Positions 1,916 through 58,931 are shown, counted from the stretch's first letter. The stretch: 64,000 nucleotides of DNA from PVC group bacterium (GCA_945890715.1 CAMDCX010000003.1:7906-71905), one strand, 5' to 3'. The notes: a model not told the origin generated them from the letters alone. Made by a program: numbers and translations.

Positions 1916-3187
1916 TCAGGGCTTCTGGTATCGTTTCTCAGCGTCGTCAATATAGGACTCTATTTTACTTTTTTCAAGCTCGGGAACCAACCCCTCCCCG
2001 GGCCTCGGATTCTGATCTCGTCGCTTCCCGTCCATATCCCGCTCCACTTCATCAAGATAGGCTTCGCGGGAACGGGTCAGGGCTTCCAACTGTTTCAGGG
2101 CGGATTCAGCCCGGCTTAATCGCCATTTCAAGATCGGGGTCCAGGCTCCAGAAACCACTCCCTCGTAAAAACGGCCATACAAATTGGCAATCGCCCCCAG
2201 TTCCGGAGCCTTTCCCATCGTGACCATCTGAAGCCGCTCCATCTTAAGGGCTGCCCCGTTCGCGACAGCAACGGGCCATTTCTTCCGCGCCTCCATGATT
2301 TCACGGGGTTGGAGGCACACTGGTTCCGGGGTATTGAATTCCATGGGCAACTCCGCCTTCACCTGATCAATCAGGGCTAGAGAAAGCCCGCCAAATTCCT
2401 GAATGGCGAGACCCTGCCGCTGCCGCCACTCCTTCCACTGGACTTCCATCCCTGCCACGGACTCCATCTGAACGCCCGCCACGGCAAGCCATTCCGGAGA
2501 TATCGCCTCCTGTCGCACCACTCGCTCCAGAACCCGGTCGAGGGCCTCGGGAACAGAATTGATCCACGCCACCAGAAGCCCGCACAGCGCCTGCCGACTA
2601 TGCCACCCCTCGGGAAGGTGTTTCCACCCCATCACGGCCGAGGCAGGGGTTGTCCCCAAGTCCACTCCGGAAACCTTCAGGATTTTTCGATTCATGGCCA
2701 CTTGTTCCTTGTTCAGATTCCGGGCAAGTCCCACGCTCAACCACCGGGGAATCTCAGGAATAACAGCGGGCAACTCCGCCTCACGACGGCGACGATCCAC
2801 AATTCCCGTCAGAATCAACCGGATCAACCCTTCCTGAATCAGGTCGTAATCCACTGTGCCCGTCCGGGACAGGATAAGGTCGCGCTTCAACACCTCTCCG
2901 TTTCGTGAGCAGGATACGGATACGGGTCCGGACTCCTCCAGGACAATTTCGATTACGTTCCGACGCTCCGAAGAAATGGGCATTCCCAGAAACCGCTCGA
3001 ACTGAAGGGTCATGTCTTCAGCCCAGCGAGTATAATTGGTATTTTCGAGAGTATCTGATCCCACCACCCGGTAGCGGCCTGAGGCACTCAGGGTTACAAC
3101 CGGAACGGAAAATGCAGAAGGCACCCATAAAAGCAGGAGGCAGGCGGTGAACCATTGACTATTCAGCATCGGGAATTGAAAACTCAC
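1916..3187 (-). CDS. exported hypothetical protein, possibly a degenerate peptidase MA-like fold
   Basis: 423-aa ORF with signal-like N-terminus (CLLLLWVPSAFS); IPRWLSVGLA resembles the PxWxxEGxA motif; overlaps the upstream gene by 4 nt. Confidence 0.55.
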   Translation of the reverse strand: MSFQFPMLNSQWFTACLLLLWVPSAFSVPVVTLSASGRYRVVGSDTLENTNYTRWAEDMTLQFERFLGMPISSERRNVIEIVLEESGPVSVSCSRNGEVLKRDLILSRTGTVDYDLIQEGLIRLILTGIVDRRRREAELPAVIPEIPRWLSVGLARNLNKEQVAMNRKILKVSGVDLGTTPASAVMGWKHLPEGWHSRQALCGLLVAWINSVPEALDRVLERVVRQEAISPEWLAVAGVQMESVAGMEVQWKEWRQRQGLAIQEFGGLSLALIDQVKAELPMEFNTPEPVCLQPREIMEARKKWPVAVANGAALKMERLQMVTMGKAPELGAIANLYGRFYEGVVSGAWTPILKWRLSRAESALKQLEALTRSREAYLDEVERDMDGKRRDQNPRPGEGLVPELEKSKIESYIDDAEKRYQKP

Positions 3188-3885
3188 GGAGCCAGCACCA
3201 GGGTGACCTTGGTGTCCTCGATCGCAACATTCTTCAGGAATGAAACCACTCGCTTTTCTCCGGTGATATCTGAAAACAAAGACCCAAAATAATCGATCAC
3301 AACATTTTTCGAGGATCCAGGCAGCGGAAGATGTCCGACTCGAGCCCGCTCAATCATCAAGACCCCGGCTTGAAATCCCGCCCGCATGTCCATGGTAACG
3401 GGAATCTTCACTTTAGCCAACCAGGCGATGTTCGTGGTCGGCACCCAGTCAAATCCTGCATAAAGGTCAAACATGCCCGTCTTGAGGTCAATGATCAATT
3501 TCCCGGCCTTTCGGGACTTGGCCCGTTCCGTCAGAAATCCATTCAACTCCGCTTCCGTCAGGTCGATTTTGATTTCACGATTGTAGGACAACGCGGTTCG
3601 GGCCGCCTTTGCCTTGATCGGGATCTGGACCGAACCCGCGGCCTCGAAAAAGACAGGAGGTGCTTTGACCGGCCAGAGAATCGCCCCCGCCAATCCACCC
3701 ACACTCAGGATCAGCACTCCCATCAACAAAACCCGGATCCATTTCCCATAATCAACTTCCCGCCGGGCATTCAAATCCGTCATGGATGTATCCTGCAGAT
3801 TAAGCTTCTGTCCGCACGATGAGCAAAACACACGTCCCAGTTCATTTTGAAAACCACACTTTGAACACTCGATGCGAATAGCCAT
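3184..3885 (-). CDS. zinc-ribbon membrane-anchored hypothetical protein
   Basis: N-terminal CSKC...CSSC, one TM helix (WIRVLLMGVLILSVGGLAGAILWP), C-terminal LTEAELNGFL domain. Confidence 0.7.
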   Translation of the reverse strand: MAIRIECSKCGFQNELGRVFCSSCGQKLNLQDTSMTDLNARREVDYGKWIRVLLMGVLILSVGGLAGAILWPVKAPPVFFEAAGSVQIPIKAKAARTALSYNREIKIDLTEAELNGFLTERAKSRKAGKLIIDLKTGMFDLYAGFDWVPTTNIAWLAKVKIPVTMDMRAGFQAGVLMIERARVGHLPLPGSSKNVVIDYFGSLFSDITGEKRVVSFLKNVAIEDTKVTLVLAP

Positions 3886-28900: not shown

Positions 28901-29434
28901 TTAAGCCACCGTCTTTCCGGCCTTACGCCGGACATGTTCGCCTTTATAACGGACGCCCTTGCCCTTATAAGGCTCAGGCGGATAGAACGACCGGATTCGG
29001 GCGGCGACATCGCCGACCATCTGCTTATCCGAACCGCTCACCGTAATGACACTTTCCTTAACCGACACCGTGATTCCCTTGGGGGTCTCGAACACCACGG
29101 GGCTCGAATATCCAAGATTCATCGTCAGCTTGCTACCCTGCACGGCGGCACGAAACCCAACGCCTTGCAGTTCAAGTTCAATCACATATCCCTTGTCGAC
29201 TCCCATCACCATATTAGCAATGAGACTTCGAATCAAACCATGCCGACTCCGTCCCGTCGCAGTATCCTCGGTGCAGGTTATGAGTACCGTACCATCCTTG
29301 ACATCCGCCTTAATAGACGGCATGAGTACAACGGATAGCTCTCCTTTGGGTCCCTTGGCCGACACCGTTGTGCCGCTCACCTGAACCGTCACACCGCTCG
29401 GGATGGCCACCGGTTTTTTGCCGATTCTTGACAT
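28901..29434 (-). CDS. rplF: 50S ribosomal protein L6
   Basis: MSRIGKKP, PEPYKGKG. Confidence 0.97.
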   Translation of the reverse strand: MSRIGKKPVAIPSGVTVQVSGTTVSAKGPKGELSVVLMPSIKADVKDGTVLITCTEDTATGRSRHGLIRSLIANMVMGVDKGYVIELELQGVGFRAAVQGSKLTMNLGYSSPVVFETPKGITVSVKESVITVSGSDKQMVGDVAARIRSFYPPEPYKGKGVRYKGEHVRRKAGKTVA

Positions 29435-29511
29435 TCTTTATCCCCTCTTTAAATCTGATTACCCGCGCCCTCCCAGGCAACGGAGCCGATCCATTCGCCG
29501 ACTAAGGCGGT

Positions 29512-29910
29512 TTACCAAATCTGGCAGAGCAACTCGCCTCCAACACGTTTTTGACGCGCCTCACTATCCGTCATGATTCCCGCGGGTGTGCTAATAATCG
29601 AGACACCCATGCCGCCCAGCACCAGCGGGATCTGATCGAACCCAACATAGCGCCGAAGTCCCGGTTTACTGACCCGACGCAATCCTCGGATCGTGGGCTT
29701 CCGGTTGGCATCATATTTTAGCACCACCCTCAAGGTCTTCTCCCGACCGATGCCCTCGACAGAAATATCGCGGACATAGCCTTCCTTTTTCAAAATAACT
29801 GCAATCGCACCTTTCATCATTGAATGGCCGATGTCAGTTGTTTTCAAGCCCGCTTCGGATGCATTCCGTATGCGGTTCAACATGTCACTGATTGGATCCG
29901 ACAAACTCAT
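29512..29910 (-). CDS. rpsH: 30S ribosomal protein S8
   Basis: [26 protein letters not shown]. Confidence 0.97.
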
Positions 29911-29921
29911 AGGCTCTCCTT

Positions 29922-30107
29922 TTACCAGCTCGCCTTTATCACGCCGGGGATCAATCCCACGGACGCTAGTTCCCGGAAGCAAATACGACATACCTGGAAC
30001 TTACGCATATACGCATGGCGTCGCCCGCAGCGCTTACAACGGTTATAGCGACGCGTGCTAAATTTCGGCTTGCGGCTCGCCTTTATTTCTTGTGATTTCT
30101 TAGCCAA
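29922..30107 (-). CDS. rpsN: 30S ribosomal protein S14 (short Zn type)
   Basis: RCKRCGR...CRICFRE, 61 aa. Confidence 0.97.
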
Positions 30108-30128
30108 AAGAACGTCCTCCCTGCCGCG

Positions 30129-30671
30129 CTACTTGTGCGCCTTCGCGAATGGAATTCCGGTCAGCGTGAGCAGTTCACGCGCCCGTGCGTCCGTTGACGC
30201 CGATGTGACAATCGTCACGTTCATACCCTGTACCTTCTTGACATCGTCTGGATCAATTTCTGGAAAAATCGTCTGCTCCTGAAGCCCAAAGGTGTAACTT
30301 CCTCGTCCATCAAAACCCCGTACCGGCAAACCCCGAAAATCCCGAATTCGAGGTAGCGCAGCGTGAATCAGGCGCTCCAGAAAATCATACATCCGCTCGC
30401 CGCGAAGAGTAACTTTTGCCCCCACCGGCATCCCCTGCCGAAGTTTGAAATTTGAGATACTCTTGCGCGCCTTGGTAATCACAGCCTTCTGACCTGTGAT
30501 GCGTCCCAAATCATCCGCAATAGTTTTGATCTGATCCTTGTCCATGGATGCATTAAAGCCCATGTTTAGATTGACCTTTAGAATGCGCGGAACGTCCATC
30601 ACGTTCTTGCATCCCAGCGCTTTCATCAGCGCAGGTACAATCTCCGTCTTATATTTTGCCTTAAGTCCCAT
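30129..30671 (-). CDS. rplE: 50S ribosomal protein L5
   Basis: ITGQK, FKLRQG, LPRIRDFRG, IFPEI. Confidence 0.97.
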   Translation of the reverse strand: MGLKAKYKTEIVPALMKALGCKNVMDVPRILKVNLNMGFNASMDKDQIKTIADDLGRITGQKAVITKARKSISNFKLRQGMPVGAKVTLRGERMYDFLERLIHAALPRIRDFRGLPVRGFDGRGSYTFGLQEQTIFPEIDPDDVKKVQGMNVTIVTSASTDARARELLTLTGIPFAKAHK

Positions 30672-30679
30672 AATCCACC

Positions 30680-30991
30680 TTACGTATCAAGCGCCTGGGC
30701 GCATTTTTTACACTTTCGAACGCGCTTATCACCTTCAGTCACGCGTTTCACCCTCACCGCCTTTTTGCAGTGCTGGCAATAGAGCATAAGATTCGACAAC
30801 TCAATAGAGGCTTCCTTCCGGGTAATCCCGCCCTTTGGATTGTCTTGCGACTTCCGAAGGTGTTTTGTCACCAGATTGAGTCCCTCCACAATGGCTCGGT
30901 TCTTGCCCAGAAGCATCTGAAGCACTTTTCCCTGCTTGCCCTTTTCGCGACCGCGAATTTTTACAACGATATCGTTTCGCCGAATATTCAT
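30680..30991 (-). CDS. rplX: 50S ribosomal protein L24
   Basis: GREKGKQGKV, VEGLN; position in the spc operon. Confidence 0.95.
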   Translation of the reverse strand: MNIRRNDIVVKIRGREKGKQGKVLQMLLGKNRAIVEGLNLVTKHLRKSQDNPKGGITRKEASIELSNLMLYCQHCKKAVRVKRVTEGDKRVRKCKKCAQALDT

Positions 30992-31003
30992 GCATTCCTC
31001 TTC

Positions 31004-31369
31004 CTACAACACTTCGGGTGCCAATGAGACGATCTTCATGTAGTTTTTCTCGCGAAGCTCTCGAGCAACCGGGCCAAAAATACGGGTTCCCAAAGGGTTC
31101 AACTTTTCATCCACAAGAACCACCGCGTTGGTATCAAACCGCACCGCCGAACCGTCCGAACGACGGATCGGTTGCTTGGTGCGGACAATAATCGCGCGAC
31201 AGACCTGTCCCTTCTTCACCATCCCCGTGGGTTGGGCTTCCTTTACCGCAACCCGAATCAAATCTCCAATGTGGGCATACATCTTCCGCTGCCCGATCAG
31301 GCGAAAACAACGAACGCTCCGCGCGCCGGTATTATCTGCCACATCAAGGTTTGTTTCTTCTTGAATCAT
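31004..31369 (-). CDS. rplN: 50S ribosomal protein L14
   Basis: [19 protein letters not shown]. Confidence 0.97.
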
Positions 31370-31383
31370 GGTCGTTTATCCAG

Positions 31384-31659
31384 TTACTGGCGTTTCCCTA
31401 TTTCCAAGACTTCGACCAGTCGCCACCGCTTAAGCTTGCTCAGCGGACGCGTTTCGACAATCGTGACATGATCGCCTACTTTGGCCTTGCCTTCCTCGTC
31501 ATGAGCATAGAACTTCTTGGACTGACGCATTTCCTTGCCATACAAGGGATGCCTCGTCTTGCGCTCCACGCTTACCACTATGGTCTTCTGCATTGAAGCG
31601 CTGACTACCACACCTGCCCGCTCCTTGCGAAGGCCCCTATCGGTTTCCGTTTCTGCCAT
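31384..31659 (-). CDS. rpsQ: 30S ribosomal protein S17
   Basis: [26 protein letters not shown]. Confidence 0.97.
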
Positions 31660-31664
31660 AATCC

Positions 31665-31862
31665 TCAACCTTGCTGGCGACGCCGCTCGATCATCACCGT
31701 CTTCGCACGGGCAATATCCCGGCGAAGGCTGCGAATCCGTGACGGCTGTTCAATCTGGCTCGCCGATTTTCGAATTTTCAACGTACGCAACTCTTTCTCC
31801 ATGTCGGAGTTTTGTTGCGCAAGTTCCTCTTTATTAAACTCTCTCAGTTTCGCGGCCTTCAT
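31665..31862 (-). CDS. rpmC: 50S ribosomal protein L29
   Basis: [16 protein letters not shown]; position in the operon. Confidence 0.95.
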
Positions 31863-31893
31863 GGCGTCCGCACCCCTGTCCTGTTTGGCCCGG

Positions 31894-32307
31894 TTACCCG
31901 TGCCGTTTCACAAACATCGTCCGGATCGGCAACTTTGCCGCCGCCAGACGCAACGATTCCCTTGCCAACTGTTCGGTCACGCCGTCAACTTCAAACAACA
32001 TGGCCCCTGGAAGAATAACCGAAACCCAGCAGTCCAGAGGGCCCTTACCCTTACCCGACCGCGTTTCAAGAGGTTTCTTACTGACCGGCTTATCCGGAAA
32101 AATCCGCAACCAGACCTTGCCCCGGCGCTTCATATTTCGGTTCATCGCCACGCGACAAGCCTCAATCTGAGTCGCCTTGACCCACGCCCGATCCAACGCT
32201 TTCAGCCCGTACTCTCCGAAAGCCAGGGTGTTCCCTGAATGCGCAGTTCCCTTCCGGGAACCCCGCTGCACCATACGGTGCTTCACACGTTTAGGCATAA
32301 GCGGCAT
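31894..32307 (-). CDS. rplP: 50S ribosomal protein L16
   Basis: [27 protein letters not shown]. Confidence 0.97.
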
Positions 32308-32959
32308 TAGATCGTCCCCTTACTGCCTTCTCAGGCTCTTCCTTTTCTTTACAAATCCAGACTTTGACACCAATTTTACCGGCCGTGGTATTTGCCTCGG
32401 CAAATCCGTAGTCAATGTTCGCGCGAAGCGTATGCAGAGGAATCGTCCCCTCCTTGTACCACTCCACACGGGCCAGTTCGGATCCCCCAAGCCGCCCGGC
32501 GCACTTGATGCGGATTCCCTTGACACCCAATTCCATGGCCATTTTGATCGCCCGCTTCATCGCCCGGCGAAATGACACCCGTCGCTCCATCTGCAACGCC
32601 ACGCTCTCGGCGACCAATTGCGCATTCGTGTCCGGACTCCGGATCTCACGAATCTCCAAATAGATCTCCTTGCTTGTTATCTTCGCGATTTCATCGCGTA
32701 TTCGATCCAGATCCTGGCCCTTTCGGCCGATCACGATGCCAGGACGCGCGGTACATATGGTGGCGCGAACACGGTTCGCATACCGCTCAATAATGATCTC
32801 CGCCACAGCAGCCGCATCCAAACGCTTTTTCACGAGGTCACGGATCTTCAGGTCTTCCATCAGCAGGGTACCGCAGGTTTTCTTATCAGCAAACCAGCGG
32901 GACTTCCACGCCTTAGTGACGGCAATCCTGAGTCCAATCGGATTGATTTTCTGTCCCAA
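32291..32959 (-). CDS. rpsC: 30S ribosomal protein S3
   Basis: [32 protein letters not shown]. Confidence 0.97.
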
Positions 32960-32995
32960 AACGAATCTCCTTTCACATCTCCCGGCATCCGCCGG

Positions 32996-33331
32996 TCACT
33001 TCCCGTCTGACAACACAATCGTAATGTGGCTGGTCCGTTTCCGGATCCGACTCACCATACCACGCGAACGCGCCCAAAAACGCTTCATCGCCGGTCCTTC
33101 GCCGATCGTGGCCTCTTTCACTCGCAGATCATCCGCAGAAAGCTTTGCGTTATTTTCCGCATTAGCCACCGCCGAACGAATCGTCTTCTCCAACTGCCGC
33201 GCGGCCTTGCGCTCACTAAATTCAACCGTCTTGATTGCATCGGCCACCGGCAGACCTTGAATAGCCCTCGCCATATCCCGCGCCTTACGCGGAGACAGAC
33301 GCACATACTTGGTCACTGCTTTGACTTCCAT
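32996..33331 (-). CDS. rplV: 50S ribosomal protein L22
   Basis: SPRKAR, SAVANAENN, GPAMKR, RTSHIT. Confidence 0.97.
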   Translation of the reverse strand: MEVKAVTKYVRLSPRKARDMARAIQGLPVADAIKTVEFSERKAARQLEKTIRSAVANAENNAKLSADDLRVKEATIGEGPAMKRFWARSRGMVSRIRKRTSHITIVLSDGK

Positions 33332-33341
33332 TGCCTTACTC

Positions 33342-33836
33342 CTAGTTCCCGAAACCGGTAACAACAACTGCCCGGTCCTGAACCCTGGGAAATGCCCGAT
33401 TCGTCTTCTGGATAACAGCTCCGGCAACCGCCGCCCGAACATCCACAACCCGCATCGTGGCCACAGCCCGATCCTCTTGCATCACCGCGAACTGCAGACC
33501 CGGCTTTACACCGTCCTGTCGCCCGCCGTCAAGGATCACCATGCCCAGCTCTTTGTTTACGTCTAAAATTCTAAACTCTTTTTTCCTCATTTCGGCTGGG
33601 GCAACGGGCCTTCCGCCCCTCCCCCCCGCCGTTTCATAGTCCCGGCTATCCTCCCGGGCTCTCAAAACATCCACTTCCGCCTTCGTCATGGCCAGCGCCT
33701 CGGTCAAGTATTTAACCTGACGCCGGAGACATTCGTCTTGGCCTCCGTCAACTCCCGCCTTTAAACTGTACCCCACCAGCAGGCACACAATAGCGAGAGT
33801 CAATCCAAACCGCCGCGCCTTATTTCCCGCACGCAT
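33342..33836 (-). CDS. secreted/membrane-anchored hypothetical protein inserted in the S10 operon
   Basis: 164-aa ORF exactly fills the rpsS-rplV gap (4 nt and 10 nt spacers); signal peptide, short coiled coil and beta-rich C-terminal domain. Confidence 0.8.
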   Translation of the reverse strand: MRAGNKARRFGLTLAIVCLLVGYSLKAGVDGGQDECLRRQVKYLTEALAMTKAEVDVLRAREDSRDYETAGGRGGRPVAPAEMRKKEFRILDVNKELGMVILDGGRQDGVKPGLQFAVMQEDRAVATMRVVDVRAAVAGAVIQKTNRAFPRVQDRAVVVTGFGN

Positions 33837-33840
33837 ACGA

Positions 33841-34125
33841 CTACTTCAACGCCACCGTCTTATCGGTATGCGTGCCGTGCTTTCGGAAAATGCGTGTTGG
33901 TGCAAATTCACCCAAACGATGACTCACCATATGCTCCGTGATGTACACGGGAACATGCTGCTTGCCATTGTGTACGGCTAGCGTATGCCCGACAAACTCA
34001 GGAACAATCATGGAACGACGGGACCACGTCTTGACCACGCGCTTTTCGCCAACGCGATTCATTTTCTCGACGCGCTCCAGAAGCTTCTCATCAACAAACG
34101 GCCCCTTTTTTAATGAACGGCCCAT
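33841..34125 (-). CDS. rpsS: 30S ribosomal protein S19
   Basis: [21 protein letters not shown]. Confidence 0.97.
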
Positions 34126-34128
34126 GGC

Positions 34129-34953
34129 TTACTTTCTCCGCCTGACAATAAATTTGCTCGACGTCTTCCGTCCCGCACGGGTCTTCTTGCCCTTCGTGAG
34201 CTGACCCCACGGCGTCACCGGGTGACCACCGCCGGACGTACGACCTTCACCGCCACCCATCGGATGGTCAACCGGGTTCATCGCCACACCACGTACAGTG
34301 GGCCGAATCCCCTTCCAACGCTTACGCCCGGCCTTGCCCAGGCAAATTCCATCATGATCCAAATTACCAACCTGGCCAATCGTCGCCTGACACTCCACAT
34401 TGATTTGCCGAATTTCACCTGACGGCAACTTCACCTGAGCGTACCCCCCCTCACGCGACATCAACTGTGCGGTCTGACCAGCACTGCGAACCAATTGCGC
34501 TCCGCATCCCGCCGTCAACTCGATATTGTGAATCGGCAAACCAAGCGGAATTTTCGCAAGGGGCAAGGCATTTCCATTAATCGGTTCGGCATCCGGACCT
34601 GACATCACCGTTGTGCCAACCTCCAACCCAACCGGGGCCAGAATATAACGTTTTTCCCCGTCCTTGTAGGCGAGAAGGGCAATGCGAGCCGTTCGGTTCG
34701 GATCATATTCAATCGCTTGAACCTTAGCGGGAATACCAACTTTATTCCGCTTGAAATCAATAATTCGGTAGTGATGCCGGTGCCCACCGCCACGATGACG
34801 AACGGTGATTCGTCCCGCAGAATTGCGTCCCGCTTTCGACTTCTGTGATTTCGTGAGCGACCGCTCTGGCTTGCTCCGGGTTATTTCATCAAACGTCGAG
34901 AGCTGCGTGTGTCGCATACTCGGCGTCGTCGGTTTGTAGGTTTTCAGCGCCAT
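34129..34953 (-). CDS. rplB: 50S ribosomal protein L2
   Basis: [23 protein letters not shown]. Confidence 0.98.
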
Positions 34954-34963
34954 GTCGTGCTTC

Positions 34964-35245
34964 CTATTCCAAATCTATCTTATCGCCTTCTCTCAAAGTC
35001 ACCACCGCGCGCTTCCAGGCCGGCTTCTTACCGGAATGAACCGTGCGTTCACGACAAGCCTTACCATCGTAATTCATGGTATTGACCTTCATGACCTTGA
35101 CCTTGAAAAAATCCTCAATCGCCTTTTTAATCTCAAGCTTGTTAGCCGAGGGATCAACCTTAAATAAATATTTGTTTTGCCCAGCAAGTAACGACCCCTT
35201 CTCCGTGATATGCAGACCACGAACTGCGGAAAGTGAATTTTTCAT
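34964..35245 (-). CDS. rplW: 50S ribosomal protein L23
   Basis: [19 protein letters not shown]. Confidence 0.95.
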
Positions 35246-35883
35246 GATTTCCTCCCCGGCTCGCCCTCAAGCCGCGCCTTCAACTGATCCATCGCGGCAC
35301 GCGTTACCACGGTCACGGGAAAACGAACCAGTTGAAACGTGCTAACATCCCGGGCCGTTGTCGCCTCCACCTGAGGCAGATTTCGGAACGCGCAAAGCAG
35401 ATTTTTATCCAGCTTGTCAACCACGATCAGAACGCCCTGCTTAAGCCCTAACGATTTCAACAACGCGACTGCGGTCTTCGTCTTAGGCTCCGTCACCGTC
35501 AGCTTTTCCAGAACCCGTATACGATCTTCCCGGATCAGATCGCTTAAGGCGCTACGAAATGCCAGACGTGCGACTTTCACCGGAATGCGCTTCGCGTAAC
35601 TCCGCGGATGGGGACCATGAGCCACACCACCGCCCCGCCACACAGGAGATTGCCGGAAACCAGCCCGGGCACGCCCGGTTCCTTTTTGTTTCCACGGCTT
35701 CTTGTTGCTACCCGCCACGGCACCCTTTCCAAGAGTGGAGGCCGACCCCGCGCGTAATCCTGCCTGATAGGCCACGATAACATCACGAACAGCCTGCTGA
35801 CCCTTGCTCGTCATCAGCTCGTCCGGGAAGTCAACCTTCGCCAACGAGGATCCTTTCATGTCATAGACAGAAAGCTTGCTCAT
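35242..35883 (-). CDS. rplD: 50S ribosomal protein L4
   Basis: KPWKQKGTGRARAG, WRGGG. Confidence 0.97.
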   Translation of the reverse strand: MSKLSVYDMKGSSLAKVDFPDELMTSKGQQAVRDVIVAYQAGLRAGSASTLGKGAVAGSNKKPWKQKGTGRARAGFRQSPVWRGGGVAHGPHPRSYAKRIPVKVARLAFRSALSDLIREDRIRVLEKLTVTEPKTKTAVALLKSLGLKQGVLIVVDKLDKNLLCAFRNLPQVEATTARDVSTFQLVRFPVTVVTRAAMDQLKARLEGEPGRKS

Positions 35884-36527
35884 TTACCCTGCCCCGCCTT
35901 CGTCTTCTTCAATGCTTTTCGTATTTCAACCAGAGCTCCAGCCGGCCCGGGAACTGCCCCTTTAACCAGGATCAGATTCTCGCTCGCCCGCAACTGAACC
36001 ACTTTCAAATTTTGCGTTGTAACCCGCACATTACCCATGTGTCCCGGCATGCGCTTACCCTTGTGAACGCGTCCAGGAAAGGAACGACATCCAATCGAGC
36101 CTACGCGCCGCTTGGAATGGCCACCATGCGTCATCGGACCGCCCGCCATCTTGAAGCGACGGACAACACCTTGAAACCCGCGGCCCTTGGTAATCCCAAT
36201 AATGTCGACGTAATCCGCTCCATCCAGAACAGAAGCCGTCACGGTATCTCCCGCCTTGACTTCATCACCGGAATCAACCTCAAATTCACGCAGAAAGCGC
36301 TTCGGCGTCGTGTTGACCGCCTTAAACTGTCCCGCATGCGCCTTGTTCGCTCGCGAGGCCTTAACCTCTACGAACCCGAGTTTCAGCGCCTCATAGCCAT
36401 CCTGGCTCTTCGTCTTGCGCTGGACCACAACACATGGCCCGATTTCAATGACCGTGACGGGAGTCTGTTGACCTTCGTCGCCGAAAACCCGCGTCATTCC
36501 GATTTTTTTTCCGAGTATCCCTTGCAT
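35880..36527 (-). CDS. rplC: 50S ribosomal protein L3
   Basis: GKKIGMT, KGRGFQG, MPGHMG, KGAVPG. Confidence 0.97.
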   Translation of the reverse strand: MQGILGKKIGMTRVFGDEGQQTPVTVIEIGPCVVVQRKTKSQDGYEALKLGFVEVKASRANKAHAGQFKAVNTTPKRFLREFEVDSGDEVKAGDTVTASVLDGADYVDIIGITKGRGFQGVVRRFKMAGGPMTHGGHSKRRVGSIGCRSFPGRVHKGKRMPGHMGNVRVTTQNLKVVQLRASENLILVKGAVPGPAGALVEIRKALKKTKAGQGK

Positions 36528-36537
36528 GGCTACCTGC

Positions 36538-36849
36538 TTAAATCTTGATCGTTATATCCACACCGGCGGGCATATTGAGTTTCTTCAACTCATCCACCGT
36601 CCTTGCCGTCGGCTCCACAATGTCCAAAACCCGCTTATGGGTCCGGACCTCAAATTGCTCCATCGATTTCTTATCGGCATGCACACTGCGATTAACACTG
36701 TAACTCTCAATGCGCGTTGGCATCGGAATGGGCCCCACCACCCGGGCTCCTGTTCTCTTTGCCGTTTCCACAATATCGGACACAGACTGATCCAGCACCC
36801 GATAATCGTAGGCTTTCAAACGTATACGTATGCGTTGCTTTTCCATCAT
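36538..36849 (-). CDS. rpsJ: 30S ribosomal protein S10
   Basis: [27 protein letters not shown]. Confidence 0.97.
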
Positions 36850-36853
36850 TCAC

Positions 36854-38988
36854 TCACCGTTCCAGAAGTTGCTGTTGTATCGCCTCCGGCACTACATCAA
36901 AACACGCCGGCTCCATCGTGTAACTCGCCCGCCCCCGCGTCAGAGACCGGACGGCCGTCGAATATCCAAAAAGTTCCGCCAGCGGAACTCGCGCATGGAT
37001 CACCTGCACGGTTTCCTTACCAACCATGTCCTGAACATGTCCGCGTCGGGCGCTCACATCGTTCAACACATCCCCCAAATGATCTGCCGGAAGAATAATC
37101 TCAAGCGACATGATGGGCTCCAGAATCGCCGGCCTTGACGCCTTCGCCGCCACTCTCAGGGCCATCACTCCTGCCGTCCGGAAGGACACCTCCGTGGATT
37201 CCTGATCATGAAACTCGCCGCCCACCACCCTGACCCTAACGTCTACCATTGGATAGTTCGCCAGAATTCCAGTCGTAAGTCCATCCCGAACCCCCTCCTC
37301 CACAGCGCCGCGGAATTCAGCCGGGATTCGAGTGTTCGACACATCAAATTCGACTGAAACTCCTGAGCCGCGTTCAGAGGGCTCGACATTCAGAACGACC
37401 ACGGCAAATTGAGGTTGCCCGGCAATGTCACGCTCAAAGCGATATTCACCCCGACCTGAAGCCAGAACGGTCTCCCGGTACGCCACCATCGGCCTCCCCG
37501 CATTCGCCTGCACCTTGTACTCACGAAACATCCGGTCTTTCAAAATCTCAAGATGCAACTCGCCCATGCCACTCAAAAGAGTCTGGCCGGTATCAGGATC
37601 CACCGACACGATACAGGTCGGATCCTCCGCTGCAAGTGCACTCATGGCCTCGCCCAACTTCTCGCGATCAGCCTGCGATTTTGGCTCGATCGCCATGGAA
37701 ATAACCGGCTCCGGAAAACGGATACGCTCCAGCTCGACGGGCATATTCTCGACACACAGAGTATCGCCTGTCGTGATCTGCTTCAATCCAACCACCGCAC
37801 CGATTTCCCCGGCATGCAAAACGTCCACCTCCTGGCGATCATCCGCATGCAGGAGCACCAATTTCATCACACGTTCACGTTTCCGGGTACGGGCATTAAA
37901 CACATTTTGCCCCTTCCGGATCTGTCCGGAATAGACACGAACAAAGGCGAGTCGCCCCATATAGGCATCGCTCATCAACTTAAAAACCAACGCACTCTGA
38001 GGAGCGAAATCATCCGCTTCACGAGACACAACTTCACGGGTCTTGGGATGTTCGCCTCGAACCGGAGGAACATCTATCGGAGCCGGAAGAAAATCCACGA
38101 CGGCGTCCAACAACTGCTGAACCCCCTTATTACGAAGTGACGATCCACACAAAACCGGCGTCAGGGTCTGTGCGAGCGTCGCACGTCGCAACCCATCCCG
38201 TAGAACCTGCGCAGGAACATCGGCACAGTCCAGATAGGATTCAAGAACTTTTTCATCCCGTTCAGTTAAAATCTCGATGAGCTGAGCACGAGCCTTCTCA
38301 GCCTCCACGGCCAGCTCAGCAGGAATCGAAACCGCCTGAACCTTGCTCCCGAAGGAAGTGTCGTCATAAACAATGGCTTCCATGGCCAGCAGATCAATGA
38401 CCCCGCGGAATCGATCTTCAGAACCCCACGGGATCTGAATGGGCACCGGAACTGCTCCCAAACGGGTTCGTATCTGAGCAACCACCGAATTGAAGTCAGC
38501 GCCAATACGATCCATTTTATTCACAAATGCAATGCGGGGAACATGATAGCGATCCGCCTGATGCCAGACTGTTTCAGACTGCGGCTGCACGCCGCCCACA
38601 CCACAAAACACCACAACCGCACCATCCAGAACACGCAACGACCGCTCGACTTCAACTGTAAAATCAACATGCCCGGGAGTGTCGATGAGATTGATCTGGT
38701 GATCCCGCCAGAAACAAGTCGTCGCGGCGCTCGTAATGGTGATGCCGCGTTCCTTTTCCTGCGGCATCCAGTCCATTGTGGCGGTTCCCTCATGGACTTC
38801 ACCCATACGATGCACTCGACCGGCATAAAACAGAATACGCTCGCTCGTCGTGGTCTTACCCGCATCGATGTGGGCAATGATCCCGATATTGCGAACGGCG
38901 GACAGAGGACGTACACGATCCGCCGCTTCACGCTGGCGCGCGTCCCCTGTGGCTCCACCTTGTTTATTCTGTTCCAAAACTGTTTCCA
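36854..38988 (-). CDS. fusA: elongation factor G family GTPase (str-operon copy, divergent domain IV; start uncertain, ORF open to 39046)
   Basis: [31 protein letters not shown]; downstream of rpsG. Confidence 0.93.
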
Positions 38989-39055
38989 TTTGATTCACTA
39001 AACAAACAACACCCGCCGCCCGATCGTCGGACGACGGGATATTCATAAGCTCAAC

Positions 39056-39529
39056 TTACCATCGATAATGGGCAAACGCCTTGTTTGCCTGGGCCATCTT
39101 ATGCGTGTCGTCGCGCTTTTTAATGGCATTGCCCTGCTCGGCATAGGCATCCAGAATTTCCTGAGCCAGCGCACGCCGCATCGGCACACCCTTCCGGGTC
39201 TTCGCGTACTGGATCAACCAGCGCATTGCCAAGGCACCCTGTCGATCCGGAGTCACTTCAACCGGCACTTGATAGGTCGCACCACCGACACGGCGCGATT
39301 TCACTTCGACTTTCGGCTTCACGTTGTCAATCGCGCGAAGAATCACTTCCAGCGGATCGCCATCAGGATGCTTCTCTTGAATCACCTTCAGGGCATCGTA
39401 AACAATGTTTACCGATACCGATTTTTTCCCAACCTTCATCAGGTGGTTCACCAGACGACCGACCAACTCGCTGTTGTACTTCGGATCCGATTGAACCGCT
39501 CGCCGCACTGCTCTACGTCTTCGTCCCAT
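39056..39529 (-). CDS. rpsG: 30S ribosomal protein S7
   Basis: SRRVGGATYQVP, MAQANKAFAHYRW. Confidence 0.98.
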   Translation of the reverse strand: MGRRRRAVRRAVQSDPKYNSELVGRLVNHLMKVGKKSVSVNIVYDALKVIQEKHPDGDPLEVILRAIDNVKPKVEVKSRRVGGATYQVPVEVTPDRQGALAMRWLIQYAKTRKGVPMRRALAQEILDAYAEQGNAIKKRDDTHKMAQANKAFAHYRW

Positions 39530-39543
39530 GATCTTGCGCCGTC

Positions 39544-39921
39544 CTACGCCTGCTTCGGTGTTTTGACGCCATACTTGGAACGGCCCCGGTGCCGTCCCTC
39601 TACGCCCAGTGTATCCAAAGTACCACGAACAATGTGATACCGCACACCAGGCAAGTCCTTTACGCGACCGCCCCGCACAAGCACAACACTGTGCTCTTGA
39701 AGATTGTGCCCTTCGCCCGGAATATAAGCGGTCACTTCCTCGCCATTGGTCAGACGAACACGCGCCACTTTACGCAGCGCCGAGTTCGGCTTTTTGGGTG
39801 TCTGTGTTTTCACGGACAGACACACGCCGCGACGCTGAGGACAATTCTTCAGCGCGGGCGATTTGCTTTTATTACGGATTTTCTTTCGTCCGTTTTTAAC
39901 CAGTTGATTAATCGTCGGCAT
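39544..39921 (-). CDS. rpsL: 30S ribosomal protein S12
   Basis: [27 protein letters not shown]. Confidence 0.98.
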
Positions 39922-39953
39922 AGTTACATTCCCTTCCAAACGCAAAGCGCGCA

Positions 39954-39983
39954 AAAGTGCCAGAAGTGATAGGTCCTTGTCAA
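39954..39983 (-). promoter_or_regulatory. probable str-operon promoter
   Basis: TTGACA-N18-CACTTT with a TGG extension, in the rpoC-rpsL gap. Confidence 0.5.
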
Positions 39984-39986
39984 GCT

Positions 39987-42900
39987 TTATCCCAAAAGCT
40001 CCTGAGCTTTCTTCAGCGCTTCGCTTTCCTGACGCAAGTCTTCCTCAGGAATCGGCTCCGCAAGAGGCACTAATTTGATGTTCCGGAACATTGGGAAACC
40101 GGTTCCGCCCGGAATCAAATGGCCCATGATAACATTCTCCTTGAAGCCATACAGCGTATCCACACGCCCCAGCGTGGCAGCCTCGGTCAGCACTCGGGTG
40201 GTATCTTGGAACGACGCCGCCGAAATAAAACTCTCGGTCTCGAGCGCCGCCTTGGTGATCCCAAGAAGAGCCGGAGACGCTTCCGCCGGACGTTTGCCCT
40301 CGGCCTGTGCCTTGGTGTTCATCTCCTGGAATAACCGTTTTTCCACCTGCTCGCCCCAAAGAAAATCAGTATCGCCCGCATCCGTGATCCGGACTTTGCG
40401 CAGCATTTGACGGACAATGATCTCGATGTGCTTGTCGTTGATTTCAACACCCTGCAACCGGTAGACTTCCTGAACCTGATTGACTAGGTATTCCTGCAAC
40501 TCCTGAGGGCCACAAATCTCCAGGATTTCCTGAGGAACCACGGGGCCTTCCGTGAGCTGTTGCCCCTTCTGAACATAATCGCCCTTATACACAACGATAT
40601 GCTTGCCCATCGGGATCAAATGCTGCTCCTCGTCACCCGTAACCGCATCACGGATCAACAAGCATCGACGTCCACGCTGATTCGCTCCAAAATCCACCAT
40701 ACCATCGATCTTCGCAATCTCGGCAGCATCCTTCGGCCTGCGAGCCTCAAACAGTTCCGCCACACGCGGCAGACCTCCAGTGATGTCCTTGGTCTTGGAC
40801 TCCTTACGAGGCGTCTTCGCGATCACCTCACCAGCCATGACCTTCTTCCCGTCCTTGATCATAACATGAGCGCCAGCCGGAATATTATACGCCATGGGCG
40901 GCTCGTTATGACCGAAGGTAATCACGATCTGGGGATGCAAATCCTCCTTGTGCTCAAGAACGACGGTACCCATCAGACCGGTGGACTGATCCACCTCCTT
41001 CTTGACCGTTACATTCTCAATAAACCCCTGGAAGTGAACCGTACCGGGCTTCTCCGCAAGAATAGGCACACTGTAGGGATCCCATTCGATGAAGCTTTGC
41101 CCCTTCTTTACCCTACCCCCATCCGCCTCGGCAATGATCGCGCCAATGGCGATCGAATGTCGCTCAACCTCACGGCCGGTATCATCAAAAACAGCCACAG
41201 AACCATTCTTATTAAGCACCACAAATTTGCCCTGCTCATTCACTACCGTACGCATATTGGTATACTGAATGATACCGTCGTGCTTGGAGATCACATGGGG
41301 CTGTTTAAAGACCGAGCTCGCGGTACCACCAATATGGAACGTCCGCATGGTCAACTGGGTACCCGGCTCACCAATGGATTGCGCCGCAATAATTCCGACA
41401 GCCGCACCCATTTCCACGGGGCGCCCATTCGAGAGATCGCGTCCATAGCACTTAGCACATATTCCTCGACGGGATTCGCATGTCAAAACACTGCGGATAC
41501 GAACCTTCTCAATATCCGCGTTCATAACCGCCTCGGCCAGCGCCTCATCAATGAGCCCACCAGCGGGAACAACCAGTTGACGCGTCACGGGATTAACAAT
41601 GTCGTTCAACGCCGTACGACCCTTGATGCGATCAGCCAACGAAACCACATTCTCATCGCCCTCACCGATGGCTTTAACCTCGATACCATTAAGGGTGTTG
41701 CAGTCTTGTTCGATGATCCGGACATCCTGGGCCACATCGACCAGTTTACGGGTTAAATACCCGGCATCAGCGGTCTTCAGGGCGGTATCAGCCAGACCTT
41801 TTCGGGCACCATGGGTACTGATGAAATACTCCAGAACACTCAGACCCTCTCGAAAATTCGACACAATGGGTCGCTCAATGATTTCCCCGGACGGCTTGGC
41901 CATCAAGCCTCGCATACCCGCCAGCTGACGAATTTGCTGGCGACTACCACGAGCCTTGGAGTCCACCATCATAAAGATCGGGTTGGCTTCCTCGCTCCCC
42001 GCATTCTCCTCGATCGCACGATACATGGCGTTCGAAGTTTCATCCGTCGCCTGGGTCCAAATATCGACGATCTTGTTGTAACGCTCTCCGTCCGTAATGA
42101 TACCGCGTCGATACTGGCTTTCCACCTCGCCCACAGCCTTATGCGCCTTGGCAATGATGTCTTCCTTCTCGGCCGGAATAATCATGTCCGACAAACCAAT
42201 CGAGATGCCCGCCAGCGTCGCGTTCTCAAAGCCAATGTTCTTGAGGCTTTCCAAAACTTTCACGGTCTCGGTATGGCCGCTGACACGATAACACTGCCAA
42301 ATCAACTTCCCGAGAAATGACTTATCGCAACAACGATTAATAAACCCAAGCGTCAAAGGAAGGATTTCGTTGAAGAAAACGCGACCAACGGTGGTGATCA
42401 ACATCTTTGAATGATTGTCGCCAAAAACCGTCTTGCGTCCAAAATCGGGATTCCTGAACCGGATGCGGTTGTGGATCTTAAGTGCGCCGTCATCATACGC
42501 CAGACGAACCTGGGACGCCTCATCAAAAATAGGAAGCCGTTCCTGCTCCTGACCCTGACCGGATGCTTTGCGTCGCACCTCCTTGATTCGATCCTTTTGG
42601 GCCGATGAAGTGAGGTAATAGATACCTAACGCAATATCCTGAGTAGGCGTCATAACCGGCTTGCCACTCGAGGGGGAGAACACATTGTTTGTTGAAAGCA
42701 TCAGAAGGCGAGACTCGATCTGGGCCTCGATAGACAACGGCACGTGCACCGCCATCTGATCCCCGTCGAAGTCGGCATTATATGCTGTACACACCAACGG
42801 ATGCACTTGGATCGCTTCTCCCTCCACCAGGATGGGCTCAAACGACTGAATGCTTAAACGGTGAAGCGTCGGCGCGCGGTTCAGCATGACGGTCTTGTCG

Positions 42901-58083: not shown

Positions 58084-58931
58084 TGGTTCTCACCCTGTTT
58101 CCCGGTCACCACCAGAACACTCCTGAGTCGACCCAGATCGGCCACCGGTTCAACATCCCCATGCTGATACAGCCCGGTCTCGTCAAGGGTCACCCGAACC
58201 ACTCGTCCCACGGCCAAGCCGGGCGGGAAAATTCCGCCCAACCCCGAGGTCATCACCCGTTCCCCGGCCTGAATTGCCAGATCCTTGCGCAAATAGTCCA
58301 CCCGGAAGGGACCGGGGACACACAACACCCCCGTGCTGTGGACACCCCTCAGCGAAACTCCACCGCCATGCAGAATCCCGAATGAACCCTCCTGGTCGAA
58401 TCGGACGGATACCTTGAAGGATCGGTCTGAAATCAGCAGGACATCGCACGTCTGATCCGACACCTCGGTCGTTCGGCCCACCACCCCGTCGGGTGTAATC
58501 ACCGGCATGTTGGCGGCAAGGCCGTGTTTTCGCCCCTTGTCCAATCGGAGAGTCTGCCACCAGCCATACCCGTCATCACGGGCAATCACCTCACAGGCAA
58601 CGGTTTTCAGGGATACTCGCCGCTGGTAGTCAAGCTGCGCGCGTAACTCCTGGTTTTCACGAGCCAGGGGCTCCAGATTCCGAAGTCTGGTGCGGAGCCC
58701 CATGGCCTCGCGGTCAAGCCGGTCACGCTCCTGGATCACCTCCGTGATATTCCCCACTGCCGAGGACGTCTTTTGAACACCGGACATCAAGCGGGTGACG
58801 CCACCCTGATAGGTGGCCATGCTTTCGCGAAAGAATTCCCGCAGGGAGGACGACACGGTGGGGGGCAGGTTCAGGAGAACCAGGAAAAAGGTCGCCAATA
58901 TCACCCAGAAAAGAAAATTTTTATCCCTCAC
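58080..58931 (-). CDS. mreC: rod shape-determining protein MreC
   Basis: TM plus coiled coil (ENQELRAQL), LDKG, GVVGR, TSGLGGIFPPGL. Confidence 0.93.
   Translation of the reverse strand: MRDKNFLFWVILATFFLVLLNLPPTVSSSLREFFRESMATYQGGVTRLMSGVQKTSSAVGNITEVIQERDRLDREAMGLRTRLRNLEPLARENQELRAQLDYQRRVSLKTVACEVIARDDGYGWWQTLRLDKGRKHGLAANMPVITPDGVVGRTTEVSDQTCDVLLISDRSFKVSVRFDQEGSFGILHGGGVSLRGVHSTGVLCVPGPFRVDYLRKDLAIQAGERVMTSGLGGIFPPGLAVGRVVRVTLDETGLYQHGDVEPVADLGRLRSVLVVTGKQGENQ

Follow-up and report, generated by a model that had tools for sequence, protein, structure and literature searches.

Analysis of a 64,000-nucleotide stretch of DNA from a PVC group bacterium (hereafter the window, meaning the whole of that stretch) identified a gene between rpsS and rplV, termed here gene X, which is a genuine, non-ribosomal protein-coding gene, conserved and fixed in the S10 ribosomal-protein operon. 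The X-rplV pair is an old arrangement across Verrucomicrobiota and, since X is tied to L22 across the phylum, production of an envelope-type protein is probably joined here to that of the ribosomal proteins. The rpsS-rplV junction is among the most constant of bacterial gene neighbourhoods, and at this place an uncharacterised, probably exported protein is encoded across a phylum.

Gene X in the S10 operon

A first-pass annotation of the sequence had described a 164-aa ORF beginning 4 nt past the rpsS stop codon, and the coordinates of gene X agree with this, on the minus strand (Table 1). The same annotation had taken the TAG of X to belong to the AGGAG Shine-Dalgarno (SD) sequence of rplV, and the two were indeed found to overlap. 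Translation of 33342..33836 on the minus strand gave a protein with an N-terminus that reads MRAGNKARRFGLTLAIVCLLVGYSLKAG. The open frame of rplV reaches a TTG at 33448, and the L22 domain starts at the ATG at 33331. The neighbouring ORFs display the usual S10 gene order from fusA to rpsN, with S19 and L22 covered by the Pfam check and the remaining genes named from our own reading. The fusA (EF-G) frame, at 36854-39046 of the window on the minus strand, ends 4 nt ahead of rpsJ with no tuf between them, and when read from its first ATG it carries some 45 residues before the usual start of the GTPase domain.

Table 1. Coordinates of gene X, its flanking features, its predicted protein segments and its paralogues
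Feature	Position	Strand	Remarks
Gene X	33342..33836	-	164-aa ORF, stop codon counted in; protein P0001
rpsS (ribosomal protein S19)	33841..34125	-	Pfam Ribosomal_S19 PF00203, 126 bits
rplV (ribosomal protein L22)	32996..33331	-	Pfam Ribosomal_L22 PF00237, 122 bits
Spacer, rpsS TAG to X ATG	33837..33840	-	4 nt; no Shine-Dalgarno before X
AGGAG Shine-Dalgarno of rplV	33339..33343	-	overlaps X TAG (33342-33344); 10 nt before rplV ATG
Signal-peptide-like N-terminus, residues 1-27	33756..33836	-	sequence and heuristic over 89 members
Coiled-coil helix and predicted parallel homodimer interface, residues 33-69	33630..33740	-	contacts 33-62; AlphaFold2 and complex model
Predicted six-stranded beta-barrel, FlgT-C / MreC type, residues 87-160	33357..33578	-	invariant G105, G109, G113, R129, R134, D154
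Paralogue	L122:1283-2236	-	
Paralogue	L123:1599-2534	-	
Paralogue	L126:1156-2034	+	
Paralogues, tandem pair	L124:1916-2863 and 2882-3799	-	
Paralogues, tandem pair	L125:1594-2463 and 2467-3615	-	

Gene X belongs to the S10 operon by its strand, by its gaps of 4 and 10 nt to either neighbour and by the lack of any promoter or terminator belonging to it alone. Promoter-like sites were absent from 32200-35000, and of four terminator-like sites none lies on the minus strand beside X. In base composition X (GC 0.578, GC3 0.624) is like its neighbours (GC 0.52-0.57, GC3 0.58-0.63). No inverted repeats were found, and of four short, imperfect two-copy direct repeats none brackets the gene, in agreement with the absence of flanking repeats noted earlier.

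A homologue of X was found in 38 of 41 related genomes, which include 13/13 genera, 7 families and 19/19 high-quality genomes; the three relatives in which no homologue was found have genomes that are 68-82% complete. The order L2-S19-X-L22-S3 was observed in all 37 order-level loci holding both flanks (20/20 and 17/17), a count that leaves out one locus cut by a contig end and the second, weak match of one genome, which lies elsewhere. Chance falls far short of explaining an ORF that recurs, with its synteny, in 38 of 41 relatives, and X is thus neither a recent insertion nor an artefact. The first-pass annotation had raised the prospect that the ORF might not be conserved, which is contradicted by these homologues, and that of an assembly artefact, which is contradicted by the recurrence of the same arrangement across relatives and phylum. 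We consider it very likely that X is a real, translated gene.

The closest homologues in public records, with 51-84% identity, come from metagenome-assembled genomes of Kiritimatiellia or Verrucomicrobiota. Across the loci, the identity of X was 35-84%, as against 60-100% for S19 and L22. A comparison of dN/dS, also proposed in the first-pass annotation, was carried out by the Nei-Gojobori method on 28 pairs of close relatives and gave 0.34 for X, 0.015 for S19, 0.017 for L22, 0.051 for L2 and 0.015 for S3. Gene X is therefore under purifying selection, which is far looser than that on the ribosomal genes. A lower synonymous divergence was seen in the part of X that encodes the barrel; it was rejected as an anomaly, as S19, L22 and parts of L2 give the same values.

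As its protein changes some 20 times faster than those of the neighbouring genes, and as it has been lost repeatedly, X might be suspected of being spurious, a product of misassembly or a gene carried along neutrally. However, the synteny of X extends across the phylum, its dN/dS lies well below 1, its barrel is modelled with confidence, 433 protein clusters match it at E <= 1e-10 and RNA-library contigs cover it, and we regard such an origin as exceedingly improbable. These contigs were recovered from five freshwater metatranscriptome runs of two studies, in which 5-6% of the words sampled from the window are present. Placed at 90% likeness, they come from close relatives, are 90-95% identical to the window and bridge X and its neighbours. 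One contig of 982 nt (X1 record 5) runs from rplB through rpsS and the complete X into the first part of rplV, and two others, X2 record 11 and X4 record 27 (second run, second study), bridge X and rplV. The contigs are compatible with co-transcription of rpsS-X-rplV, with the qualification that assembled contigs are no proof of a single transcript, that DNA carry-over is possible and that they derive from relatives.

The translation signals around X are arranged asymmetrically, with a strong SD before rplV in 31 of the 37 order-level loci as against 2/37 before X. The start codon of X lies 2-10 nt past the rpsS stop in 23/37 of these loci, its stop codon is part of TAGG in 33/37 and of TAGGAG in 23/37, and the gap between this stop and the rplV ATG is 9-14 nt in 35/37. 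As X has no SD of its own and its stop lies inside that of rplV, we infer termination-reinitiation coupling on both sides of the gene. In other classes the gap between X and rplV is about 40-175 nt, and the overlap of stop and SD is therefore not general. The RNA at the X-rplV junction was no more stable than mononucleotide shuffles in the 8 loci analysed (z -1.8 to +0.9), and no Rfam matches were obtained in 29000-40000 of the window.

Distribution across the class and the phylum

A profile built from 37 sequences (A1) was used to search 151 genomes of the class, and 89 of them matched at E <= 1e-3. A hand comparison of the profile-match rows with the L22 coordinates in the same 151 genomes placed a match on the rplV contig, within about 50 nt of rplV, in 49 genomes, matches only elsewhere in 40 and no match at all in 62, leaving 102/151 in which no match adjoins rplV. 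Of 19 loci representing other families of the class, 18 showed the order S19-X-L22, and in the remaining one (L067) S19 falls outside the fetched stretch. In genomes that do not carry X, rpsS lies 18-126 nt from rplV with no ORF between them (5/5 checked, from five families, 95-100% complete), and thus X has either been lost repeatedly or was never gained there. Gene X is dispensable in many relatives.

At the level of the phylum, 70 of 301 genomes matched the X profile at E <= 1e-10, a figure which is a lower bound as the profile missed X-like ORFs in some genomes. Five additional genomes of other classes, picked by handle number and none among the 70 (G184, G186-G189), were inspected, and four of the five that the profile had missed contained an X-like ORF before rplV, three of 295-321 aa and one a 136-aa form; the fifth had none. 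The 136-aa frame, L144:1843-2250(-), is a minimal version located between rpsS and rplV, with a signal peptide and a barrel and no coiled coil, in a genome of 1.8 Mb that is 100% complete and belongs to a class other than that of the window.

In 24 of the 25 loci fetched for other classes, rplV is immediately preceded by X. The exception, L116:2237-2896(+), is an X-like gene (220-aa frame) away from rplV, which groups with other-class X in a quick tree. In 11 of those 24 loci rpsS lies upstream of X, and in the other 13 it is absent from the fetched 1.4-2.3 kb, the gene upstream of X there being a DNA topoisomerase (L108 and L114, called by Pfam Topoisom_bac, which was checked in both), an M20 peptidase (L103) or unassigned. 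In several of these genomes the break in the S10 cluster falls precisely at the upstream side of X, and X-rplV-rpsC is preceded by a topoisomerase gene (L108, L109, L112 and L114) or by the peptidase gene (L103). The other-class X proteins are longer (220-412 aa), through added coiled coil. As X and rplV are kept together where rpsS is not upstream, the stable unit is X-rplV and not rpsS-X-rplV. Thus, the synteny of rpsS-X-rplV, which the first-pass annotation had asked to be checked, is seen in the order and in 18 of the 19 loci from other families of the class and is not general in the phylum, where the bond conserved is that of X with rplV. In the same way, its description of X as 'inserted between rpsS and rplV' is right as to location and wrong as to an event in this lineage, the arrangement being old and Verrucomicrobiota-wide.

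When the profile was run against 1.84 billion representative proteins, the clusters matched numbered 433 at E <= 1e-10 and 1971 at E <= 1e-3. A protein atlas contributed only unnamed clusters of Verrucomicrobiota and Omnitrophota, and in two clusters FlgT_C was assigned to 15-40% of the members, with scores below 0.9. A search for homologous proteins among longer proteins found none, and the homologues of similar length retrieved with the profile were only unnamed or 'hypothetical' proteins.

The attachment of X to rplV could be envisaged as regulatory. Secretion-dependent leaders such as SecM-secA, MifM-yidC2 and VemP-secDF2 offer a comparison, and X may likewise be a cis-acting leader whose translation and export gate ribosome entry into rplV and the downstream genes. 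Such a leader would fit with an X stop codon that lies within the rplV SD in 23/37 loci and a gap of 9-14 nt in 35/37, with an X-rplV bond that outlasts breakage of the operon and with a product that looks exported. A mere leader, however, needs neither a folded barrel nor invariant residues nor purifying selection, all of which are seen in X; the overlap is not general, given the gaps of other classes, and the junction RNA is not unusually stable in the 8 loci, with no arrest motif identified. We hold a leader of this kind to be very improbable, and hardly less so the broader proposal that X is glued to rplV by a cis role in which its translation or export status sets ribosome flow into rplV and the downstream genes. 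L22 itself forms part of the lining of the exit-tunnel constriction, where arrest peptides are sensed. Were such a cis role true, it would tie ribosome production to envelope or Sec capacity and constitute a new kind of S10-operon feedback. We favour instead a protein that acts in the envelope and is co-produced with the ribosomal proteins.

Predicted export, fold and dimer of X

A signal peptide, a short coiled coil and an MreC/FlgT-C-like barrel had all been proposed in the first-pass annotation, and each has a counterpart in our predictions: an export-type N-terminus in X and in most of 89 family members (by heuristic), an AlphaFold2 helix over residues 33-69, and a six-stranded barrel with a Z of 12.1 to FlgT-C and of about 8 to MreC. 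Four positive residues mark the n-region of X, MRAGNKARRF, which is followed by a hydrophobic core of 15 residues and by a cleavage-like site between SLKA and G. By our own heuristic, in which the (-3,-1) rule is weak, the N-terminus of X fits the layout of a cleavable Sec signal peptide with a positive n-region, an h-region of about 7-15 residues, small residues at -3 and -1 and no lipobox, as MRAGNKARRF / GLTLAIVCLLVGYSL / KA, with cleavage before G. The closest relatives have hydrophobic cores of 13-17 residues followed by small-x-small sites. Across the 89 family members, the same heuristic found a strongly hydrophobic 13-mer in 81, a net-positive n-region in 74, an absence of net positive charge behind the hydrophobic segment in 77, and a lipobox-like motif in 4. 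On these sequence features, X is likely to be exported. In a minority of members from three families (L051-L053, L057-L061, L087, L090 and L092) positive residues (arginines) directly follow the hydrophobic segment, and the topology of that minority is ambiguous for this reason.

An AlphaFold2 model of X, computed from a 37-sequence alignment (mean pLDDT 76, pTM 0.46), places helices at residues 4-26 and 33-69 and six strands within 88-160 (pLDDT about 90), with a linker of low confidence at 70-79. The second helix shows the 3-4 hydrophobic repeat of a coiled coil, in which V41, L44 and L48 are at least 90% conserved in the 37-sequence alignment, as is L58 in a subset of 11 of these sequences (alignment A2). 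When two copies of residues 28-164 were modelled together the score was 0.53, against 0.01 for the best of 3 controls; in a benchmark, a score of 0.53 was reached by 20 of 30 solved one-chain pairs and by 1 of 23 solved single chains. The two-copy runs share at least 58% of their contacts, with a partner pLDDT of at least 72. Contacting residues pair in register (41-41, 44-44, 48-48, 51-51, 55-55 and 58-58), and the modelled dimer is therefore parallel. The coiled-coil dimer is a textbook motif, and thus part of the dimer score may reflect likeness to solved structures. The models support the formation by X of a parallel coiled-coil homodimer.

When compared with the PDB by Foldseek, the model of X gave as its first match 8z5n (FlgT chain of the Vibrio LPHT ring, E 1.6e-4) and as its second 2j5u (Listeria MreC), followed by 3w1e (FlgT, E 4.2e-4) and the N-terminal barrels of F1 ATPase subunits. 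With VIA-align, 8z5n_5 was aligned at Z 12.1 (rmsd 3.0 over 83 residues), about 3 Z units over the next unrelated rows. The N-terminal barrels of rotary ATPases and HerA followed at a Z of about 8-9.3, MreC entries at 7.9-8.4, and a tail of small barrels included Gar1 at 7.4 and eukaryotic ribosomal proteins at 6.2-6.5. Given that rotary-ATPase, Gar1 and ribosomal-protein barrels also match, the fold alone is no pointer to the envelope. The X profile matched PDB sequences with coiled-coil noise only (E 0.29-1).

The X barrel is mildly basic (pI 9.7), and this property, together with the matches to Gar1 and ribosomal-protein barrels (Z 6.2-7.4), would suit an X that faces the cytoplasm, where a membrane-anchored protein could act on ribosomes or their assembly, for instance near L22 and the exit tunnel. 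Such a role near L22 would explain why the X gene never leaves rplV, which it directly precedes in 13 loci without rpsS upstream, and the positive charge behind the hydrophobic helix in some homologues points the same way. In contrast, however, most members have signal-peptide-like features (n-region 74/89, following charge 77/89), the best structural matches are periplasmic proteins, and the gene is missing from many relatives that have ordinary ribosomes. We thus consider a cytoplasmic X improbable, and favour an exported one.

The explanation that we prefer may be outlined as follows. X would be translated from the polycistronic S10 mRNA by coupling, with ribosomes that leave X passing on to rplV, and its product would be exported by Sec. 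Once in the periplasm, two copies would pair through a parallel coiled coil into a homodimer that bears two C-terminal barrels of the FlgT-C/MreC type. Barrels of this type dock onto other periplasmic assemblies and X may, by analogy, be an envelope scaffold or adaptor, the supply of which would be tied to the synthesis of ribosomal proteins through its place in the mRNA. The assignment as an envelope scaffold is by analogy and thus tentative, at slightly less than even probability, and for the combined reading, in which coupled translation within the S10 mRNA yields an envelope scaffold that is exported and dimeric, the balance of our judgement is slightly favourable. If X were an abundant periplasmic scaffold, made in proportion to the ribosomal proteins, it would represent a lineage-specific matching of envelope building to growth, in a group, Verrucomicrobiota/Kiritimatiellia, whose envelope is poorly understood.

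Comparison with known systems

The only Pfam match to X was FlgT_C, which stayed below the cut-off of 27 bits with 13.5 bits (E 0.1), or 12.8 bits when the genome was searched, and a search of NCBIfam with X assigned it to no family. Among the 37 family members, nine matched FlgT_C at E <= 0.1 with a best value of 0.0043, all under the cut-off. FlgT_C (PF16538; PDB 3w1e and the FlgT chain of 8z5n) is nonetheless the closest fold to the X barrel, and FlgT is exported, as X is predicted to be. The two differ in that FlgT is a protein of about 350-380 aa with three domains, which occurs with flagellar basal-body genes, whereas X has 164 aa, lacks the FlgT N and M domains, adds a coiled coil to its one barrel and lies in a ribosomal operon. 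No gene for the FlgI P-ring turned up in the genome of the window (89.5% complete), and a role of X in a flagellar H-ring is therefore unlikely.

MreC (PF04085; PDB 2j5u, 6zlv, 7eft and 2qf4) shares with X a hydrophobic N-terminus, a dimerising coil (predicted in X) and a beta-barrel, in which the motif LD.G...G(V/L)..G is common to both. In contrast to X, which has one barrel in the model, MreC has two, and its bitopic anchor with a cytoplasmic tail differs from the N-terminus of X, which looks cleavable; MreC is furthermore encoded with mreB/mreD, whereas X lies between rpsS and rplV, outside any mre operon. MreC (PF04085) gave no match on X at E <= 1, and in an hhalign comparison of the X alignment with 17 MreC sequences of the class a probability of 58% (E 9.7e-5) was obtained over 35 columns around LD.G...G. 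A true MreC is encoded in the same window, at about 58104-58586 on the minus strand in a 287-aa open frame (PF04085, 141 bits), some 24 kb from X, and it is the only PF04085 match in the genome. MreC was found in 149 of 151 genomes of the class, with or without X, and as it is present nearly everywhere the phylogenetic profiling of X against MreC was uninformative. The idea that X is a replacement MreC was rejected, because true MreC coexists with X and the losses of X do not track MreC.

It could still be asked whether X is a truncated MreC paralogue in the elongation machinery, either anchored or exported, the single barrel of which binds a PBP2-like peptidoglycan synthase. The outline of N-terminal hydrophobic segment, coiled coil and beta-barrel is MreC-like, MreC structures align to the barrel at Z 8.0-8.4, and the second place of 2j5u in Foldseek and the 35 columns of the hhalign alignment add to this. 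However, no PF04085 match appears at E 1, there is one barrel and not two, a true MreC is found in the window and in nearly all genomes of the class regardless of X, and FlgT-C gives the clearly better fit (Z 12.1). A truncated MreC thus seems an unlikely identity for X. By the families' own criteria, X is outside both FlgT and MreC, yet it has their barrel. An exported envelope scaffold with a barrel of this type remains our preferred description.

Weak matches of the X profile elsewhere in the class genomes belong to a family of paralogues of about 290-320 aa, which begin with a hydrophobic helix and continue through a long coiled coil to a C-terminal barrel as in X. These matches had been considered as MreC, which was rejected since their coordinates differ from those of the PF04085 matches. 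The likeness of the paralogues to X extends over coil and barrel (hhalign probability 98%, E 2.4e-13, 122 columns); they differ in being twice the length of X and in lying elsewhere in the genome, without a conserved neighbourhood. The adjoining genes include those for aspartate-semialdehyde dehydrogenase, a flavoprotein, a methyltransferase, a glycosyltransferase and YjeF_N. The paralogues match no Pfam family over its threshold, and none was found in the window's own genome (89.5% complete). In a quick tree they form one separate clade (SH-aLRT 100), which may branch either inside or outside the X of this class. Together, X and its longer paralogues define a domain family that lies outside all curated libraries.

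A full-text search of the literature, which covered few subscription journals, found nothing on X or on the rpsS-X-rplV arrangement, and the passages searched in PMC2474590 and PMC3444138 contain nothing relevant on L22, S19 or the operon. Gene X should serve as a good synteny marker, its annotation needs a family model, and it is a clear target for knock-down where members of the phylum are in culture.

Non-ribosomal genes embedded in ribosomal-protein operons have precedents in the spc and alpha operons, namely secY, adk, map, infA and rpoA. These resemble X in being non-ribosomal, in lying within operons of ribosomal proteins and in having been retained over long evolution. They are, however, nearly universal, have known functions and occupy other positions, whereas X is lineage-specific and splits rpsS from rplV. 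Gene X represents a new family made up of known folds, and its place is unusual yet not unprecedented, since secY and adk also live in ribosomal operons.
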